From Shigella phage SFPB: a stretch of DNA of 64,000 bases. Position numbers and translations under genes: made by a program. The DNA is taken from the sequence record OQ031072, one strand, 5' to 3'. Every line of letters begins with the position of its first letter. The first letter of the stretch is position 1. The notes under the pieces are model-generated. The model did no database searches. It was not told the DNA's origin and saw only the letters and a program-made list of their open reading frames with translations. Shown here piece by piece: positions 33,737 through 46,115 of the stretch.

Positions 33737-34777
33737 ATGGAACAATACACCTTAACAAAGCTCCCAGAGAGCGTTACACACGTCTTTATTGACTCTGATA
33801 GCATTGCTTACAAAGGTGCTTGTGTAGTTGAAAAAGCAAAGTACAAGTATGTGAATAAAATCACTGCTGAAGAATCCGACGCTTTTGATAGTGCAAAACT
33901 GGCAGCACAATGGCTGTCTGACCAAAGAGTTTTAACTGAAGAGTTAGGACTTGACTTTGATGAAGATGAATGGGAAAGACAGACTTGGAAGGAGGCTAAG
34001 AGTGAAGCTGAAGCAATTATGGCTACACAGCAAGTTCTTCAGGAGTGGTTGAAAGTCGTTGGTAAAGAACGCAAATGGATGGGTTACCTTACTGAGAAAG
34101 GTGTTCACAAACACAAGGATATCAAAGGTCTTGAACACCAATATCAAGGTAACAGAAAAGAAGCTGTAACACCTACACACCTAGTTGCTTGTCGTGAGTA
34201 TCTTCTGTCACGACCAGAGTTTAAGCTCTTAAAAGGGGGCTTCGAAGCAGACTCTATCGTTATTGCAAAAGCTGAGAAGATGGGGAAAAAAGCTGCTCTG
34301 ATGAGTATTGATAAAGACCTTCGTCAAGCTGAAGGAACTTACTGTATTGATATGACTTACGAGAAAGCTCCATTAATTTTCATTGCAGATAATAACGTTG
34401 GTGAGATTTGGGATTGCCCTATCAAATCTAAACCGAAAGCTAAGAAGACAGTCGGAGTAGGTTTTAAATTCCTCTGCTATCAAGCTGTAGCAGGTGATAA
34501 TGCAGACAACTACTTCGGTTTAAAAGGTGCTGGTAAGGTTGCGGTGATGAATGCACTGGAAGGTAAAACTACCTACAAAGAGTGCTTAGATGCCATCTAT
34601 GAACTTTATGCTAAGAAAGAGTCATACACTTATGAATCGTGGGATGGTCAGATTGTGACAAGAACTCCACTAGAATTAATGGAGCAACACTTCTGGATTG
34701 CTTATCAAGAACGAAATCCTAAAGATGATTTTACGTTTAAAAAATACAATTGGGAGCCAGTTATGAATGAAGATTAA
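33737..34777 (+). CDS. 5'-3' exonuclease / flap endonuclease (RNase H-like); start trimmed
   Basis: H3TH-like segment LCYQAVAGDNADNYFGLKGAGKVAV; N-terminal acidic nuclease fold residues. Confidence 0.6.
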   Translation: MEQYTLTKLPESVTHVFIDSDSIAYKGACVVEKAKYKYVNKITAEESDAFDSAKLAAQWLSDQRVLTEELGLDFDEDEWERQTWKEAKSEAEAIMATQQVLQEWLKVVGKERKWMGYLTEKGVHKHKDIKGLEHQYQGNRKEAVTPTHLVACREYLLSRPEFKLLKGGFEADSIVIAKAEKMGKKAALMSIDKDLRQAEGTYCIDMTYEKAPLIFIADNNVGEIWDCPIKSKPKAKKTVGVGFKFLCYQAVAGDNADNYFGLKGAGKVAVMNALEGKTTYKECLDAIYELYAKKESYTYESWDGQIVTRTPLELMEQHFWIAYQERNPKDDFTFKKYNWEPVMNED

Positions 34778-35267
34778 AGGATTTGGAAATTGCCCTGTTT
34801 ATGGACATTGGGTTTCACTGTGCGGGGAAATTGACCCCGCTAACTATTTTGGTTTTGTCTATTTAGTATACTGTAAGAAAACTGGACAATATTATATTGG
34901 GAAGAAACAATTTAATAACGTCACTAAGAAAAAGGTTGCTGGAAAGACCAGACGTAAAGTCGTGACAAAAGAAAGTGATTGGATGACTTATCAAACATCT
35001 TCTGAGTACATTAAGAAGGATATTGAATCTTTTGGTGAAAAAGAGTTTGACTTCTACATCATCCAGACTTACTATACGCGAGGTGGCTTAGTTTATGGCG
35101 AAGCTAACCTACAACATAAGTTTGACGTCATGACAAAAAGGATTGACTCTAAGCTTCGACTCTTCTACAATGCGAACATTGCAGCAATCAAGTTTCTTAC
35201 AAAAGAGACTTATGATGAAGCTGAGAAGAGAATCACTAAAATCATGAAACTTAATGAGAGAGTTTAA
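34767..35267 (+). CDS. GIY-YIG homing endonuclease-like protein
   Basis: FGFVYLVYCKKTGQYYIGKK matches GIY-(N10)-YIG. Confidence 0.55.
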   Translation: MKIKGFGNCPVYGHWVSLCGEIDPANYFGFVYLVYCKKTGQYYIGKKQFNNVTKKKVAGKTRRKVVTKESDWMTYQTSSEYIKKDIESFGEKEFDFYIIQTYYTRGGLVYGEANLQHKFDVMTKRIDSKLRLFYNANIAAIKFLTKETYDEAEKRITKIMKLNERV

Positions 35268-40996: not shown

Positions 40997-41007
40997 AATT
41001 AATATAA

Positions 41008-41030
41008 GGGTCTCTTCGGAGACCTTTTTT
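41008..41030 (+). terminator. rho-independent terminator (GGTCTC-TTCG-GAGACC type)
   Basis: GGGTCTC ttcg GAGACC then TTTTTT. Confidence 0.6.
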
Positions 41031-41045
41031 GCATTAGGAGTCAGA

Positions 41046-43187
41046 ATGGTTAAAGTACAAATTATTAAGAAAGACGGTTCACTGGAAAAGCCAAACGTAA
41101 ATAAAATCGTCGAAGCAGTTACCAAGTCAGCTAATAGAGTTGGCTACAAAGAGTTACCACTAGAAGTTACCCATGCTCTTGAATCAGCCTTTATGAGACT
41201 GCTTGTCAGAGCAACTAATCAGAATGCTATGCTCATCTCTGTAGATGATGTTCACAGTATTGTAGAAGGGACTCTGGCAGAGGTAAACCATGAAATCTAT
41301 GAGTCATATTCAACCTACAGAAACTATCGTAAAGAGGTTGCACAGAATTGGGATGAACTTTACCAGAAAACTAAAGACACACTCTTCTTAGGTGACCGTG
41401 AGAATGCTAACTTTGACAGTAGCTTAATCTCTACAAAAGGTTCAATCATCCGTGGATATTTGACAAAAGAAATCTTTAAGCAGTATCACTTGACACCAGA
41501 AGAAGCAAGTGCTATTGAAGATGGATTCATTTATATCCATGACTTAAGAGACTTAATCTTCGGTGGTATTAACTGTTGCTTGTTTGACATGGGAAGCGTC
41601 TTGAAAGGTGGTTTTGAAATGTCAGGCATCGAATACTGTGAACCAAAGTCTGTACTTTCAGCTTTACAGGTTATTGGTGACGTTGTACTCTCAGCAACTG
41701 CACAGCAATTTGGTGGGTTTACTATCCCAGAGATTGACAAGGTTCTTGTGCCATATGCTAAGAAGTCTTTTGAGTATCATCTGGAGAAAGCAAAGCAGTA
41801 TAATATCCCAAGTAAAGAAGTATACCACTACGCTAAAGAGCAACTTCAGATTGAGCTAACCCAAGGCTTCCAATCTCTGGAAATGAAACTGAATACAGTT
41901 CCTTGCAGCCGTGGTGATTTTGCATTCACAACTTTAACGTTTGGTTTACTCGAACCAGATATGGCTAGTGAAGATAACCGCTTGCAATTTATGATTGCAA
42001 AGACTATTCTTGATGTGAGAATGAATGGTCAAGGCAAGTCTAAGAAGCCTGTTGTATTCCCTAAACTGGTTTACATTTATGATGAGACAAGGCACATGTT
42101 AGACCCTTGGCAGGGAACTCTTTATGACAAAGCTATTGAGTGCTGTTCTAAAGCTATGTATCCAGACTTCTTAAGTGTTTCTGGTCATGGTTCTGTTGCA
42201 GAAGCTTTTGAGCGTTCAGGTGCAGTCATCTCTCCAATGGGTTGTAGGGCTTTCTTATCACCATATTATGATGAAGATGGTAAAGAGTTCTACACAGGGC
42301 GAGCAAATATCGGTGCAGTATCTCTTAATCTGCCAATGATTTACAAGTATTCTGAAGAGAATGGTTTAGACTTCTGGACAGAACTTGACAAATACCTTGA
42401 AATGATTCGAAGCTTCCATAAGAAGCGTTATGAGATGATTGCTAATATGCCAGCAAGCTCTAACCCTTTAGCTTTCACACAAGGTGGATTGTATAAAGGA
42501 CATAAGAAGCCAACTGATAAGATTGGTTGGGATACTGTTAAGTCTTTTACAGCATCTTTTGGCGTGACCGCATTAGATGAATTAACAGTGCTTGCTCAAG
42601 GTAGAAGATTGCATGAGTCTGATGGTGATATTGCAAGCAAGGTTTTAAGCTATCTGAATAGCAAGCTGGAGCAGTTTAAGCAGGAAGACGGCTTCCTGTA
42701 TGCACTTTATGGTACACCTGCTGAGAGTCTTTGTGGTACGCAATTGAAGCAGTTTAGAAATATGTTCGGAGTTGTTAAAGGTGTTTCTGATAAAGAGTAC
42801 TTTACAAACAGTTTCCACATGAATGTTGGTGCAGACATTACACCGTTTGAAAAGCAAGACTTAGAAGAACCTTTCTTCCACTCTTGTAATGGAGGCCATA
42901 TCATCTACTCAAGGTTAGCCAATCCTGAGAACTTGCAAGCTATCAGGGCTTGTGTAACAAGGGGTATGGGTAAAGGATTCTATCAAGGTATCAACTTTGA
43001 CTTAGCAATCTGTGAAAATTGTGGTCACAGACCTAACAAAGATGTTGAACTATGCCCTAAGTGCAACTCCCATGATATCTCTGTGATTAATCGTGTGTGT
43101 GGTTATCTAGGTTGGACTAAGATTAAAGGTACTTCCAGAATGAACGATGCAAAAATTGCAGAAATCAAGGACAGAGTATGTATGTAA
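41046..43187 (+). CDS. nrdD: anaerobic ribonucleotide reductase, class III; start trimmed to ATG after terminator and AGGAG
   Basis: C-terminal glycyl-radical motif RVCGYLG and Cys4 zinc site CENCGH...CPKCNSHD. Confidence 0.9.
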   Translation: MVKVQIIKKDGSLEKPNVNKIVEAVTKSANRVGYKELPLEVTHALESAFMRLLVRATNQNAMLISVDDVHSIVEGTLAEVNHEIYESYSTYRNYRKEVAQNWDELYQKTKDTLFLGDRENANFDSSLISTKGSIIRGYLTKEIFKQYHLTPEEASAIEDGFIYIHDLRDLIFGGINCCLFDMGSVLKGGFEMSGIEYCEPKSVLSALQVIGDVVLSATAQQFGGFTIPEIDKVLVPYAKKSFEYHLEKAKQYNIPSKEVYHYAKEQLQIELTQGFQSLEMKLNTVPCSRGDFAFTTLTFGLLEPDMASEDNRLQFMIAKTILDVRMNGQGKSKKPVVFPKLVYIYDETRHMLDPWQGTLYDKAIECCSKAMYPDFLSVSGHGSVAEAFERSGAVISPMGCRAFLSPYYDEDGKEFYTGRANIGAVSLNLPMIYKYSEENGLDFWTELDKYLEMIRSFHKKRYEMIANMPASSNPLAFTQGGLYKGHKKPTDKIGWDTVKSFTASFGVTALDELTVLAQGRRLHESDGDIASKVLSYLNSKLEQFKQEDGFLYALYGTPAESLCGTQLKQFRNMFGVVKGVSDKEYFTNSFHMNVGADITPFEKQDLEEPFFHSCNGGHIIYSRLANPENLQAIRACVTRGMGKGFYQGINFDLAICENCGHRPNKDVELCPKCNSHDISVINRVCGYLGWTKIKGTSRMNDAKIAEIKDRVCM

Positions 43188-43633
43188 AGGAGCTTCTTTG
43201 CTACAATCCAGAAAATGGTGAAATAAGATGGAAGAGTGACGGCAGCCTTGCTGGAAGTAAAATTTCAGGAGGCTACATTCTCATAACACTTCCAGATGGT
43301 TCCAAAGAATATGCTCACAGACTGGCATTCTTACTTATGGGTGAAGAGATACCTGAGTTAGTAGACCACATCAATGGTATTAGAGATGATAACCGTTGGA
43401 GCAACTTAAGAAGCTCTAACAAGGTTGATAATGCTTGTAATGCTAAATTAAGAGATGACAATAAAACAGGGTATAAAGGTATTTCTTGGGACTCTTCGAG
43501 AAAGAGGTGGAGAGTTTCAATAACCTATAACAAAAGGACAGTTTCCAAGAGATTCAAAAACTTTGAAGATGCTGTAGAGTACATGCAAGACTTAAGATTG
43601 GAACTTCATTCACAGTACTGTAGGTTCAAATAA
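43178..43633 (+). CDS. HNH homing endonuclease-like protein
   Basis: AHRLAFLLMGEEIPELVDHINGIRDDNRWSNL (HNH_3-like); basic C-terminal domain. Confidence 0.6.
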   Translation: MYVKELLCYNPENGEIRWKSDGSLAGSKISGGYILITLPDGSKEYAHRLAFLLMGEEIPELVDHINGIRDDNRWSNLRSSNKVDNACNAKLRDDNKTGYKGISWDSSRKRWRVSITYNKRTVSKRFKNFEDAVEYMQDLRLELHSQYCRFK

Positions 43634-43791
43634 AGTAGTTGACAAGGTGGTGTAGGTCTTGATAGGCTTACATCACCTTTTTATTAGGAATCACAACATG
43701 ATTAAGACATTCTTGTTAGTCACCTTAGTAGGCTCTGTCTTACTAGGTTTCTTGTTAGGGCTTTTATACAACACATTGAAAGGAAAGAGAA

Positions 43792-44184
43792 ATGACTAAA
43801 TTAAATAAAAATCAAATGAACTGGCTTAAAGACTATGCTTTAGAGTGTGGCTCTTGTGAGAAAACTCACAGAAAATACTCAGAGTTTTACATAGCATGTA
43901 CTCTTTTAATAACTGACTCTGTTATTGATGACGCAAAGGATGATGACATTGAACTCCCTACGGAGTTGAGTGATAAAGTCTTAGTAGTAACTGGAACATG
44001 GTCAGATTCATATGGTACAGAAATTGGTGACATGTCTTTCTACAGTATTCAGCAAACAATGAATCCAAAGTATGTTGCTTTGATGACTCGTGCTCAGGAA
44101 GATGAACTGCTTCAGGAATTTATTAAAGAGCATTGTGAAGAGTACGTCACAAAACATGTAAGTTTTGAAGTTGAGGTGTGCTAA
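43792..44184 (+). CDS. hypothetical protein
   Basis: 130-aa ORF. Confidence 0.45.
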   Translation: MTKLNKNQMNWLKDYALECGSCEKTHRKYSEFYIACTLLITDSVIDDAKDDDIELPTELSDKVLVVTGTWSDSYGTEIGDMSFYSIQQTMNPKYVALMTRAQEDELLQEFIKEHCEEYVTKHVSFEVEVC

Positions 44185-44669
44185 TGAACTACATGGAAAT
44201 ACGAAAATTCGATACAGCGAACGGTGAAGGTGCTCGTGTCAGTCTTTTTGTAGCTGGCTGCAAACATCACTGTGAAGGTTGTTTTAACAAGGAATCTTGG
44301 AAGTTTAATGCTGGTAAAGAGTTTACTTATGCAAACCTTTATGGCATTATGCAGATAATGAATGATGATGGAATCAGTGGTCTATCTATCCTTGGTGGAG
44401 AGCCACTTGATGATAGGAATGTTCAGACAGTAACAAATATCTGTAAGCGGATTAAAACCGTATACCCAGACAAATCTATATGGTTATGGACAGGTTACCA
44501 GCTACATGAAAAAATTAACTTAGAAGTGATGAAATATGTTGACGTGGTAATAGATGGTAAGTATGATGCTTCTAAACCAACACACAAACCATATCGTGGG
44601 TCTGACAATCAAATACTTTGGAGAAAAGAATATGGCTGGCAAGGCGACTGTCAATGGAGAGCAGAATAG
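44184..44669 (+). CDS. nrdG: anaerobic RNR activating enzyme (radical SAM); start trimmed
   Basis: RVSLFVAGCKHHCEGCFN cluster near N-terminus; TAATG-coupled. Confidence 0.8.
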   Translation: MNYMEIRKFDTANGEGARVSLFVAGCKHHCEGCFNKESWKFNAGKEFTYANLYGIMQIMNDDGISGLSILGGEPLDDRNVQTVTNICKRIKTVYPDKSIWLWTGYQLHEKINLEVMKYVDVVIDGKYDASKPTHKPYRGSDNQILWRKEYGWQGDCQWRAE

Positions 44670-44952
44670 AGCGGGTTTTCGAAGAGGTGAGATTATGACC
44701 ATTTCTTGCAATAGCTCACTGTTTGGAGAGTATAAGGTTAACCCTAACACTCTTGAAGATTGGCAGAAGTACACAAAGAGTCTTTTTGATACAACTGGAT
44801 TAGACGCTTTAAAAAAGCTTGCAGAAGTTGAAGTTTTCAGAGTAAAATATAAGTCACACATGTCAAACTTCTACGCAACAAATATTGTTGAAGATGACAA
44901 AGTGGTTTCCGTAACAGAAGAAGAACTGAAGCAGTTCTGTATTAAACTTTAA
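44632..44952 (+). CDS. hypothetical protein; start trimmed
   Basis: SD GGAGAAAAG; 106 aa. Confidence 0.4.
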   Translation: MAGKATVNGEQNRAGFRRGEIMTISCNSSLFGEYKVNPNTLEDWQKYTKSLFDTTGLDALKKLAEVEVFRVKYKSHMSNFYATNIVEDDKVVSVTEEELKQFCIKL

Positions 44953-44967
44953 TAGAGAGATATTAAA

Positions 44968-45225
44968 ATGGGAATTTTTTCAAACATGAAAGCAGGTTTC
45001 TTAGCAGCTCTGGCAAAATCAGCAGCTATCGTTTCAATGACTGGTAAGCAGGTTGGAGTAGACGCTTCAGCAGTTGCACAGGTTCTTGCAAGCCAGATTG
45101 AACAGCAACCTTACATCCATGTTGGACGTGGTAAAGGTGGTAAGAAGCAAGCTCATCGCCAAACTGGTGCAGCAGCAATTAAACGTGCAGCTAAAAAAGC
45201 TCGCAACCGTAAACGTAGCAAGTAA
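44968..45225 (+). CDS. small protein with highly basic C-terminus
   Basis: 85 aa; C-terminal KRAAKKARNRKRSK. Confidence 0.45.
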   Translation: MGIFSNMKAGFLAALAKSAAIVSMTGKQVGVDASAVAQVLASQIEQQPYIHVGRGKGGKKQAHRQTGAAAIKRAAKKARNRKRSK

Positions 45226-45236
45226 GGATTATTAAA

Positions 45237-45548
45237 ATGGAAAAGGTTTATAACACTCGTAAAATTCAGATTTCTATCCTGTGCCAGTTTATGGCTGATA
45301 AACACAACTCCCACTATTGTGGTACAGGTTTCCTTACTCTAGGTGGTGGCTACATTAGCTTCAAAGAAGCTGTGAAGATGTATAATGAGCACCCTGAAGA
45401 TGACAAAGAGTTGAAACAACTGAAGCTTACTTATGACAAGAAGCGTAAGAAAATTATCTGCTTGAACAATTTTATCAAGCCAACTGAGAACGTCTATGAT
45501 GCAATTGGTGAAGAAGGCTTCTTCAAAGTCTTGAAATTAACTCAGTAA
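45237..45548 (+). CDS. hypothetical protein
   Basis: 103-aa ORF with SD. Confidence 0.45.
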   Translation: MEKVYNTRKIQISILCQFMADKHNSHYCGTGFLTLGGGYISFKEAVKMYNEHPEDDKELKQLKLTYDKKRKKIICLNNFIKPTENVYDAIGEEGFFKVLKLTQ

Positions 45549-45599: not shown

Positions 45600-46115
45600 A
45601 TGTACCATTCAAATCTGAAACGTGCTGCTGCAATGTCTGTTCTTCGTCTTGATTTTGATGAGCGTCAAGAGTTTATCGATTCACATCAGTATGACCCTTC
45701 AAATTCTAACCACATGGTACTTTGGAACCGTGGTAAGTTTCGTGATAGTGCCTTGTTCCAGTACTACCCTCACTATACTATTGACAACCTCTATGAATAC
45801 TGTGTTGTCAAGAACACTATTGCAACCCTTAATAAGCTTTGTAGATATTCTGGAAAGAAAGCTTTCACATTAGGCCACCATAAGCCCGTGACAAAAGGTG
45901 GAGAGCACCATTGCTCAAACTGGTTTATCCAGACTCAAGAAGATAACCAGAAGCAGGGAGAGAAGCTTCCAGAGGCTCCTAAGATGACTTGGGAGGAACA
46001 GAAAGCATATCTTAAAAATAATATGCCACCAATGCTTGACAGGGAATATGCAGTTCTGGCAATATCACTCTTGTTGAAGCTTGAGACAGTTTATGAGGCA
46101 ACTTATCATGGCTAG
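45600..46115 (+). CDS. HNH endonuclease-like protein
   Basis: LGHHKPVTKGGEHHCSNWFIQTQEDNQKQGEK (HH...GG...N...N..K). Confidence 0.5.
   Translation: MYHSNLKRAAAMSVLRLDFDERQEFIDSHQYDPSNSNHMVLWNRGKFRDSALFQYYPHYTIDNLYEYCVVKNTIATLNKLCRYSGKKAFTLGHHKPVTKGGEHHCSNWFIQTQEDNQKQGEKLPEAPKMTWEEQKAYLKNNMPPMLDREYAVLAISLLLKLETVYEATYHG

Follow-up and report, generated by a model that had tools for sequence, protein, structure and literature searches.

What is the 151-aa open reading frame (ORF) that begins inside the last codons of nrdD in Shigella phage SFPB, and does it behave as a mobile gene? These questions were addressed by a computational analysis of a 64,000-nucleotide stretch of DNA from this phage (record OQ031072), hereafter the window. 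The nearest genomes of the window are those of Ounavirinae, namely Mooglevirus and Suspvirus, and the phage is a Mooglevirus (Ounavirinae, Felix O1-like). The original prediction had cited T4-type phages as its precedent; a T4-type setting was rejected, since the flanks match Mooglevirus phages at 95-96% identity, and the T4 precedent serves as an analogy only. A literature search for Shigella phage SFPB found no paper.

The HNH-AP2 gene and its neighbourhood

The ORF occupies 43178..43633 on the plus strand and starts with ATG. A 151-aa HNH_3-like frame overlapping the nrdD stop had been predicted from the letters alone, and the ORF was indeed present there, with matches far beyond chance. 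Its start codon (43178-43180) lies within the terminal nrdD codons GTA TGT ATG TAA, in a reading frame different from that of nrdD; with the nrdD stop at 43185-43187, this gives a 10-nt overlap of the two genes. Pfam HNH_3 (PF13392) matched residues 45-86 (43310..43435, plus strand) with an E-value of 6.7e-11 and 42.1 bits, for a gathering cut-off of 24.8 bits, and the PHROG family phrog_99, 'HNH endonuclease', matched the ORF with an E-value of 2.4e-56. The motif HRLAFLLMGEEIPELVDHINGIRDDNRWSNL corresponds to residues 47-77. There was no match to the Pfam HNH family PF01844 in the protein, which carries HNH_3 and AP2 only.

While a single-sequence phmmer search against PDB sequences returned no match, a profile search gave a match to I-HmuI. 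Residues D63, H64, N76 and N85 of the endonuclease align with D74, H75, N87 and N96 of I-HmuI, which reportedly have catalytic or metal-binding roles (Shen et al. 2004), and all four are invariant across 32 homologues. The nuclease domain has the beta-beta-alpha-metal fold of the HNH_3/I-HmuI group. Judged from its sequence, the protein belongs to this group of His-Me finger nucleases, and metal-dependent nicking or cleavage of DNA is predicted.

The C-terminal part (residues ~97-144; 43466..43609, plus strand) is an AP2/ERF-type DNA-binding domain, in which a helix packs against a three-stranded sheet and which is homologous, at the profile level, to AP2 domains of solved structure. As a single sequence, the endonuclease scored 17.5 bits against Pfam AP2 (PF00847), below the gathering cut-off of 33.3; precomputed PF00847 matches exist for several of its homologues. 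A confident two-domain fold was obtained for the 151-aa protein. The GC content of the gene (0.375) is close to that of the window (0.39) and not distinctive, so that composition gives no sign of a foreign origin. Paralogues of the HNH-AP2 family were sought in the window and none was found. A protein 100% identical to the ORF is already annotated as 'HNH endonuclease [Shigella phage SFPB]'.

Upstream, nrdD (probable boundaries 41046..43187, plus strand) encodes the large subunit of the anaerobic ribonucleotide reductase, with Pfam matches to NRDD (2.2e-116) and the ATP-cone. This 713-aa form begins at M31 of the listed ORF, in agreement with the Moogle annotation, and a terminator-like hairpin (41006-41027) lies just upstream of it. 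Despite the insertion, nrdD runs uninterrupted to its own stop at the full 713 aa, and the endonuclease gene is outside any intron or intein. Downstream, junction alignments and a terminator scan placed the right junction and the intrinsic terminator of nrdD at 43634..43686 (plus strand): (A)GTAGTTGAC comes right after the endonuclease stop, just as it comes right after the nrdD stop where the site is empty, and a hairpin with a 16-pair stem (43644-43679) is followed by a T tract. Three further plus-strand genes come next. The first two, both outside the insertion, are a 46-aa membrane ORF (43659..43799; phrog_20082, 4.6e-9), whose sequence is also present in the endonuclease-free Moogle, and a 130-aa conserved ORF of unknown function (43792..44184; phrog_4382, 5.6e-68), found in all relatives; the third is nrdG, encoding the activase (probable boundaries 44184..44669; 161 aa as in relatives; Pfam Fer4_12 1.7e-43, phrog_626). 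The claim that the endonuclease ORF separates nrdD from nrdG therefore stood in part: the ORF is between the two genes, but the terminator and the 46-aa and 130-aa ORFs are there too. As the element that splits nrdD from nrdG it was rejected, because endonuclease-free relatives keep the same 158-nt spacer and the 130-aa ORF.

Occupied and empty alleles at the nrdD stop

Comparing the nrdD-nrdG junction in relatives, as the original prediction had proposed, revealed presence or absence of the gene at one precise site. Far from being universally present, the HNH-AP2 gene occupied the nrdD stop in just 2 of the 185 records of related phages, and only two phage records held a protein with at least 60% identity to the endonuclease. 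Moogle provides the precise empty site, with the terminator directly after the nrdD stop codon. All 10 occupied loci examined shared the same site and the same 10-nt overlap with nrdD, and the orthologues, of 64-81% identity, were all at this site. Within the window, no sequence resembling the empty site was found elsewhere. The empty-site DNA pattern had five matches in IMG/VR, which holds too few Ounavirinae for an independent estimate of occupancy, and the occupied-junction pattern had none.

Direct reading of the sequence and an alignment of nrdD 3' ends (9 of the 10 occupied loci and 5 empty loci) defined a recoded nrdD end that is linked to the endonuclease (43167..43187, plus strand). 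The NrdD of the window terminates in KDRVCM instead of (Q/R)DRKSM; the C-terminus KDR(V/I)CM was present in 9/9 occupied loci aligned, and (Q/R)DRKSM in 5/5 empty loci. An AAG codon in the recoded end supplies an SD-like AAGGA (43167-43171), and the endonuclease ATG at 43178 arises from GTA TGT, which stands in place of AAA TCT. In the occupied allele, the insertion and 6-7 linked substitutions together break up the site. A promoter scan around the endonuclease gene gave 13 sites for a shuffled expectation of 12.7, and hence no sign of a promoter of its own. Because there is no detectable promoter, the gene precedes the nrdD terminator, and the SD and ATG lie within nrdD codons, the endonuclease gene is probably transcribed together with nrdD, with its translation coupled to that of nrdD. 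The recoded codons could be needed only for expression, and not for immunity.

A second endonuclease family was found at the same junction. In phiSUSP1, an HNH/NUMOD3 endonuclease gene (ALH46958) has the same insertion point, with the nrdD stop immediately on one side and GTAGTTGAC and the terminator on the other, and gp12 of Mushroom, also an HNH/NUMOD3 endonuclease, lies between nrdD and nrdG. These proteins, classical HNH enzymes with a NUMOD3 motif, are unrelated to the SFPB endonuclease. The phiSUSP1 gene starts 9 nt past the nrdD stop, whereas the SFPB gene overlaps it, and the last 12 nt of the phiSUSP1 gene duplicate the nrdD 3' end (AAATCTATGTAA). One tentative reading, which we hold to be possible rather than probable, is that two unrelated families of endonucleases compete for the nrdD stop/terminator junction of Ounavirinae as a shared landing site, and that each copes in its own way with a place at the end of an essential gene: SD and ATG in recoded nrdD codons for HNH-AP2, a 12-nt nrdD duplicate for phiSUSP1. 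If both families recognise overlapping targets, the junction would be a natural system for homing endonuclease competition or mutual exclusion, and for how these enzymes drive mosaic structure in the anaerobic reductase module of Felix O1-like phages used in therapy.

Recombination tracts, selection and the nature of the gene

Silverhawkium (Mooglevirus) and CHB7 (Suspvirus) share a 933-bp tract of 100% identity, with 0 differences, centred on the endonuclease gene; outside this tract, their nrdD flanks differ by 10-27 mismatches per 100 nt. The same endonuclease allele occurs in three backbones (metagenome contigs L021, L022 and L023) that have a 1.38-kb tract in common and otherwise differ, and the presumed co-converted segment of the window (42897..44277, plus strand) shows 0-2 differences from these contigs. 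ESh20 and Sf17, which carry empty alleles, are otherwise 98-100% identical to the window, but the 3' 800 nt of nrdD are more divergent: positions 42387-43187 had 6-23 mismatches per 100 nt, against 0-4 in nearly all the bins upstream of them and 0-2 in those downstream. This divergent tract is left-skewed, reaching ~800 nt into nrdD and, versus ESh20, <100 nt rightward, which also allows for cleavage within nrdD instead of at the point of insertion.

Identical tracts in diverged phages are the pattern expected from homing with co-conversion; they point to recombination centred on the gene and, taken alone, are no proof that the endonuclease initiated it. Between the window and Silverhawkium, pN and pS were 0.16 and 0.74 for the endonuclease and 0.08 and 0.62 for nrdD. 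Orthologue divergence is about as deep as that of nrdD, and much of the endonuclease history is therefore vertical or ancient; with synonymous sites saturated (pS 0.7-0.9), dS-based dating is unusable.

We consider it very probable that the ORF is a mobile, free-standing HNH-AP2 homing endonuclease gene, located exactly at the nrdD stop of Mooglevirus SFPB. The mobile free-standing insertion originally proposed thus agrees with a gene that has its own ORF and an intact motif, with its rarity, with the empty allele of Moogle and with the identical tracts in diverged phages. The evidence for mobility is strong but comparative only.

A homing mechanism can be proposed on the model of I-HmuI and MobE. 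When a carrier and a non-carrier phage infect the same cell, the AP2 domain would attach to the allele that lacks the endonuclease, around ...GATAGAAAATCTATGTAA|GTAGTTGACAAGG..., and the protein's one HNH site would introduce a nick or a cut in that allele. Recombinational repair from the carrier genome would bring in the gene together with a few hundred bp of nrdD 3' end and downstream DNA, and such copying of flanks with the gene would exclude markers locally. In the carrier genome itself, the target site would be lost through the insertion and the recoded codons. We infer the target site, the nature of the lesion (nick or double-strand break) and preferential inheritance from these analogues.

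Could the gene instead encode a nuclease that, as a domesticated or accessory protein, works for the phage, for example through host DNA degradation, help in packaging or defence against competing phages, its position after nrdD being incidental? Strong purifying selection (dN/dS ~0.06-0.11) and an active site that has stayed intact across deep divergence show that the protein has been kept functional, and homing-endonuclease-like HNH proteins can have phage functions, as exemplified by HK97 (PMC10448857). We nevertheless regard this as very unlikely: the gene is present in only ~1% of related phages, its insertion site is fixed, the identical tracts centre on it in diverged backbones and phiSUSP1 has an unrelated endonuclease at the same point, all of which fit a selfish site-specific element better than an accessory gene.

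Very unlikely, too, is that a once-mobile endonuclease is now without cleavage or targets and is kept only through linkage and normal homologous recombination, with an AP2 domain that perhaps does no more than bind DNA or autoregulate. Homing endonuclease genes commonly decay after fixation, the divergence of the orthologues is old and activity is predicted only. However, none of seven orthologues carried a frameshift or truncation, the D-H...N...N residues are invariant in the 32 homologues and dN/dS is ~0.1; moreover, relatives that co-circulate offer many empty target alleles, and very recent transfers are visible (the 933 bp without a difference). That the ORF reflects mere chance or an error of annotation where nrdD ends has a negligible probability, being suggested by the unusual 10-nt overlap and nothing else, against Pfam and PHROG matches, a confident two-domain fold and conserved orthologues with the same start.

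As a mobile homing endonuclease gene, the SFPB gene would be of modest significance: it adds, beyond the T4 model, a homing endonuclease that is apparently active and well documented by comparison, whose empty site and junctions are defined and whose co-conversion tracts can be seen. It alters no concept of the field. Felix O1-like phages of Shigella, E. coli and Salmonella are used for typing and therapy; mobility of the endonuclease explains the local mosaicism of their nrdD-nrdG module, and makes the region a poor phylogenetic marker.

Comparison with known homing endonucleases

The SFPB endonuclease is a typical member of the known class of HNH-AP2 free-standing homing endonucleases, and as such a selfish, ordinary gene. 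HNH-AP2 endonucleases are a recognised class (PMC10448857; PMC5714182), and Magnani et al. 2004 (PMC520932) is cited for the description of its free-standing homing members; as in the SFPB protein, an N-terminal HNH_3 nuclease is joined to a C-terminal AP2 domain. Few biochemical data on the class were found in the literature, and characterising the SFPB enzyme would provide it with a recognition site; no paper was found that describes an HNH-AP2 lineage at the nrdD stop with its start inside recoded nrdD codons.

The Felix O1-like phage Mushroom, of the same subfamily Ounavirinae, has homing endonuclease genes in and beside nrdD (PMC4392139), and its gp5, gp26 and gp38 are annotated 'HNH homing endonuclease, AP2/ERF domain'. 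Homology of the SFPB endonuclease to gp26 (3.3e-29) and gp5 (7.6e-22) was detected, but the Mushroom HNH-AP2 genes lie elsewhere in the genome and are only distantly paralogous. Outside Ounavirinae, the nearest annotated relatives are the T5-like hegE/F-TflV and F-TflVIII ('HNH nicking homing endonuclease'), with 43-46% identity over ~95% of the length; these belong to siphoviruses and occupy other loci (tRNA region). For the F-Tfl endonucleases, secondary citations point to Akulenko 2004.

I-HmuI of Bacillus phage SPO1 (PDB 1U3E) is an intron-encoded HNH nicking endonuclease that binds DNA via NUMOD/helix-turn-helix modules, whereas the SFPB gene is free-standing and its product, of ~25% identity, is predicted to bind via AP2. 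The best functional analogue is MobE of T4, likewise free-standing and among ribonucleotide reductase genes: this HNH endonuclease gene, between nrdA and nrdB, is promoterless and needs upstream transcription, and the MobE nick is repaired with co-conversion of flanks (PMC2790892). The two differ in kind and in setting, as MobE is a Mob-type HNH protein with a zinc finger, encoded among the aerobic reductase genes of a T4-like phage, and the SFPB protein, which lacks the combination of PF01844-type HNH, zinc finger and Tevenvirinae genome that marks the T4 Mob type, is an HNH_3/AP2 protein encoded among the anaerobic reductase genes of a Felix O1-like phage.

The endonuclease ORF and its neighbourhood

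The protein encoded at 43178..43633 (+ strand, 151 aa, ATG start) shares 100% identity with 'HNH endonuclease [Shigella phage SFPB]'; public records thus already annotate the gene under this description, and the window belongs to SFPB or to a phage nearly identical to it. Pfam HNH_3 matched residues 45-86 with 42.1 bits (cut-off 24.8; E 6.7e-11), the motif quoted in the original prediction corresponding to residues 47-77, and the PHROG match was phrog_99 'HNH endonuclease' (E 2.4e-56). These two matches bear out a 151-aa ORF of HNH type and exclude a spurious or chance ORF. As predicted, the endonuclease start overlaps the nrdD stop: the ATG (43178-43180) sits within the terminal nrdD codons ...AGA GTA TGT ATG TAA, with the nrdD stop at 43185-43187, giving an overlap of 10 nt. 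The assignment of nrdD and nrdG (anaerobic ribonucleotide reductase large subunit and activase) as neighbours was likewise confirmed, nrdD likely starting at 41046 (+; M31 of the listed ORF; Pfam NRDD, 2.2e-116; 713 aa as annotated in relatives) and nrdG likely at ATG 44184 (+; Fer4_12, 1.7e-43; 161 aa). However, the endonuclease gene is not what parts the two, as had been proposed, because a strong terminator-like hairpin (43644-43679; 16 pairs, then a T tract), a 46-aa membrane ORF (phrog_20082) and a 130-aa ORF (phrog_4382) also lie between it and nrdG, and are present in endonuclease-free relatives. Another terminator-like hairpin (41006-41027, +; 9 pairs and a T tract) was observed directly upstream of the probable nrdD start, so that nrdD and the endonuclease gene are bracketed by two terminators.

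With the single sequence, an AP2 match at residues 97-126 remained below the Pfam threshold. In an alignment of 32 homologues (A1), AHRLA (46-50), D63, H64, N72, N76, R78, N85 and N88 were invariant. The A1 profile matched I-HmuI (PDB 1U3E; E 5.6e-9), aligning D63, H64, N76 and N85 with D74, H75, N87 and N96 of that enzyme, which the I-HmuI structure paper is said to describe as metal-binding, general-base and structural residues. The same profile matched the AP2 domains of WRI1 (6.3e-7) and TEM1 (2.5e-4). In a confident AlphaFold2 model based on A1 (mean pLDDT 89.9), strands 61-64 and 77-80 and helix 82-87 form a beta-beta-alpha unit, after which come three strands (102-126) and one further helix (129-144). 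Taken together, the matches and the model indicate a two-domain protein in which an HNH_3 nuclease is joined to a DNA-binding domain of the AP2 type, a homing endonuclease architecture reportedly treated by Magnani et al. in 2004. The family is present in a single copy within the 64-kb window. HNH nuclease plus AP2 is a recognised homing endonuclease architecture (PMC10448857; PMC5714182).

Empty sites and traces of transfer

The original prediction had cited mobile endonucleases next to nrd genes in T4-type phages as precedent. A 4-kb query around the locus showed 95-96% identity to Shigella/Escherichia phages ESh20, 3HA14 and Sf13-Sf19 and ~89% to Moogle, a Citrobacter phage; all of these are Felix O1-like myoviruses (Ounavirinae, genus Mooglevirus). 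The phage is therefore not T4-type, and the T4 precedent serves as an analogy only.

Moogle offers a clean empty site, in which the terminator sequence GTAGTTGACAAGGTGGTG... directly follows the nrdD stop. Compared with Moogle, the window has 446 extra nt between corresponding flanks, and (A)GTAGTTGAC follows the endonuclease TAA exactly as it follows the nrdD stop in empty alleles. When the nrdD-nrdG junction was compared in relatives, the gene was clearly not universally present: it was covered in 2 of 185 phage records matching a 1.3-kb junction query (Silverhawkium and CHB7), the others listed matching the flanks only. By tblastn, protein identity of at least 60% was seen only in the records of these two phages, the next best matches being T5-like hegE/F-Tfl genes (~45% identity) at other loci. 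A pattern search of IMG/VR gave 0 matches for the occupied junction and 5 for the empty site. The orthologous proteins P0002, P0003, P0005 and P0006 (64-81% identity; from a large protein collection) are all encoded at the nrdD stop with a 10-nt overlap, a placement kept even in more distant Ounavirinae with a 717-aa NrdD and other downstream genes. Such site fidelity, with an occupancy of ~1%, makes it unlikely that the enzyme is a domesticated accessory nuclease.

Across the greater part of nrdD, Silverhawkium (Mooglevirus) and CHB7 (Suspvirus) show 10-27 differences per 100 nt, with higher divergence beyond it downstream; although assigned to different genera, they share a 933-bp tract at 100% identity, with the endonuclease gene at its centre (290 bp to the left, the 456-bp gene and 187 bp to the right). 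The window allele was found in three metagenome contigs (L021, L022 and L023) with 0-1 differences. L021 has the upstream backbone of the window and differs at 42378-42896 and 44278-45000, L022 and L023 show 15-41 differences per 100 nt upstream, and window positions 42897-44277 are common to all three at 0-2 differences. ESh20 and Sf17 are the nearest relatives with an empty site; compared with them, the window shows 0-4 mismatches per 100 nt in nearly all nrdD bins (41187-42387), 6-23 over the 800 nt adjoining the endonuclease gene and 0-2 downstream of 43734. Such patterns are expected of gene conversion with flank co-conversion centred on the gene, and they agree with published work that finds nuclease genes at the edges of segments exchanged between phages (PMC10448857).

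Other variation was noted nearby. Window positions 44278-45000 (the 3' part of nrdG and the next ORF) form another mosaic block, in which contigs that match the window exactly on both sides differ from it by 20-67 mismatches per 100 nt; the ORF after nrdG has a 106/132-aa form in the window and a 92-aa form in L021-L023, phiSUSP1 and L005. Just after the nrdD terminator, at the equivalent of ~43690, ESh20 (L002 2259-2620) and Sf17 (L003 2255-2691) carry extra small ORFs of 60, 85 and 34 aa that are missing from the window and from Moogle; the annotation of one of them is a predicted membrane protein. A few dozen nt thus separate this second variable spot from the site of the endonuclease.

Among endonuclease orthologues, pN was 0.08-0.25 and pS 0.5-0.9, with dN/dS of ~0.06-0.11 where dS was estimable, and no frameshifts or truncations were detected. 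The low dN/dS and intact frames suggest that the endonuclease is maintained as a functional protein. Between the window and Silverhawkium, the endonuclease (pN 0.16, pS 0.74) has diverged about as deeply as nrdD (pN 0.08, pS 0.62), which points to a lineage of long standing at the nrdD site that has occasionally been transferred in recent times. It is unlikely that the gene is an inactive relic in decay: its active-site residues are invariant, dN/dS is close to 0.1, empty target alleles abound and transfers are seen that show no differences.

The recoded nrdD end and a proposed homing model

NrdD ends in ...KDR(V/I)CM* in 9/9 aligned occupied loci and in ...(Q/R)DRKSM* in 5/5 empty loci. In occupied loci, the change from CAG/CGT to AAG yields AAGGA, a Shine-Dalgarno-like sequence 6 nt upstream of the endonuclease ATG, and the change from AAATCT to GTATGY makes that ATG. 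With the overlap, this recoding means that endonuclease codons 1-3 are written within the terminal nrdD codons. Near the gene, promoter-like sites were not above shuffled expectation, and the nrdD terminator is positioned downstream of the endonuclease gene; from this we infer that the gene is probably co-transcribed with nrdD and translationally coupled to it, as shown experimentally for the promoterless mobE of T4 (PMC2790892). A target that straddles the junction would, in addition, be broken up by the recoding substitutions together with the insertion, and no empty-site-like sequence (up to 5 substitutions) was found within the 64-kb window.

The prediction of a mobile HNH homing endonuclease insertion was supported by the precise Moogle empty site, the sporadic occupancy and the mosaic identical tracts. 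Adding the intact HNH-AP2 protein, the fixed site and purifying selection, we consider it very probable that the gene encodes a homing endonuclease and is mobile. The enzyme would be expressed from the nrdD transcript and, in a mixed infection, its AP2 domain would bind an empty allele near ...GATAGAAAATCTATGTAA|GTAGTTGACAAGG..., where the single HNH site would either cut both strands or, like I-HmuI and MobE, nick just one; we are evenly divided on whether it is specifically a nickase. Recombination-dependent repair would copy the gene into the recipient along with neighbouring markers, and local marker exclusion could result from the copying of those markers. Since the window tract is skewed leftward, the cleavage site may lie some way inside nrdD and not at the insertion point, as with other free-standing endonucleases such as MobE, which nicks inside nrdB (PMC2790892).

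A shared insertion site and related systems

In Mushroom, another member of the Ounavirinae, nrdD has been described as disrupted by a free-standing endonuclease (PMC4392139); in its record, a NUMOD3 endonuclease (L024 8234-8734) lies between nrdD and nrdG, and three HNH-AP2 genes are listed at other positions. A homologue of that NUMOD3 enzyme was found in phiSUSP1 (L012 2189-2760) at the exact insertion point of the HNH-AP2 gene, directly after the nrdD stop. The phiSUSP1 and Mushroom enzymes (187 and 166 aa) are classical HNH + NUMOD3 proteins unrelated to the HNH-AP2 endonuclease. The last 12 nt of the phiSUSP1 gene, AAATCTATGTAA, repeat the 3' end that nrdD has in empty alleles, so that the C-terminus of its protein, KSKSM*, mimics the ..DRKSM* of NrdD. 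The occurrence of both enzymes at one junction makes the nrdD stop/terminator a hot spot for at least two unrelated endonuclease families. This looks analogous to the T-even phages, in which mobC and mobE are reportedly replaced by segH and hef, to go by the title of Sandegren et al. (2005).

Elsewhere in the window, the ORF at 34767-35264 (+) is strongly similar (E 4e-100) to Mushroom gp25, annotated as a GIY-YIG homing endonuclease, and is a probable second homing endonuclease gene. At 45600-46115 (+), a 171-aa ORF (phrog_3500) has weak HNH-family matches and the motif HHKPVTKGGEHHCSNW; several relatives list the 103-aa ORF at 45237-45548 (+; Pfam DUF7390) as 'putative HNH/homing endonuclease'. 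In contrast to the HNH-AP2 gene, these last two ORFs occur in every relative closely examined.

Two features stand out: the endonuclease start codon lies within nrdD codons that have been recoded, and the co-conversion tracts are very clear. The novelty of the endonuclease itself is low, since it is a typical, uncharacterised member of the known HNH-AP2 class, already annotated, and belongs to the same HNH_3/I-HmuI group as I-HmuI. In its probable mode of working, its closest counterpart is T4 MobE, which is also free-standing, promoterless and located between reductase genes, but the HNH subfamily, DNA-binding domain and phage family all differ, and the enzyme is not a member of the T4 Mob family.
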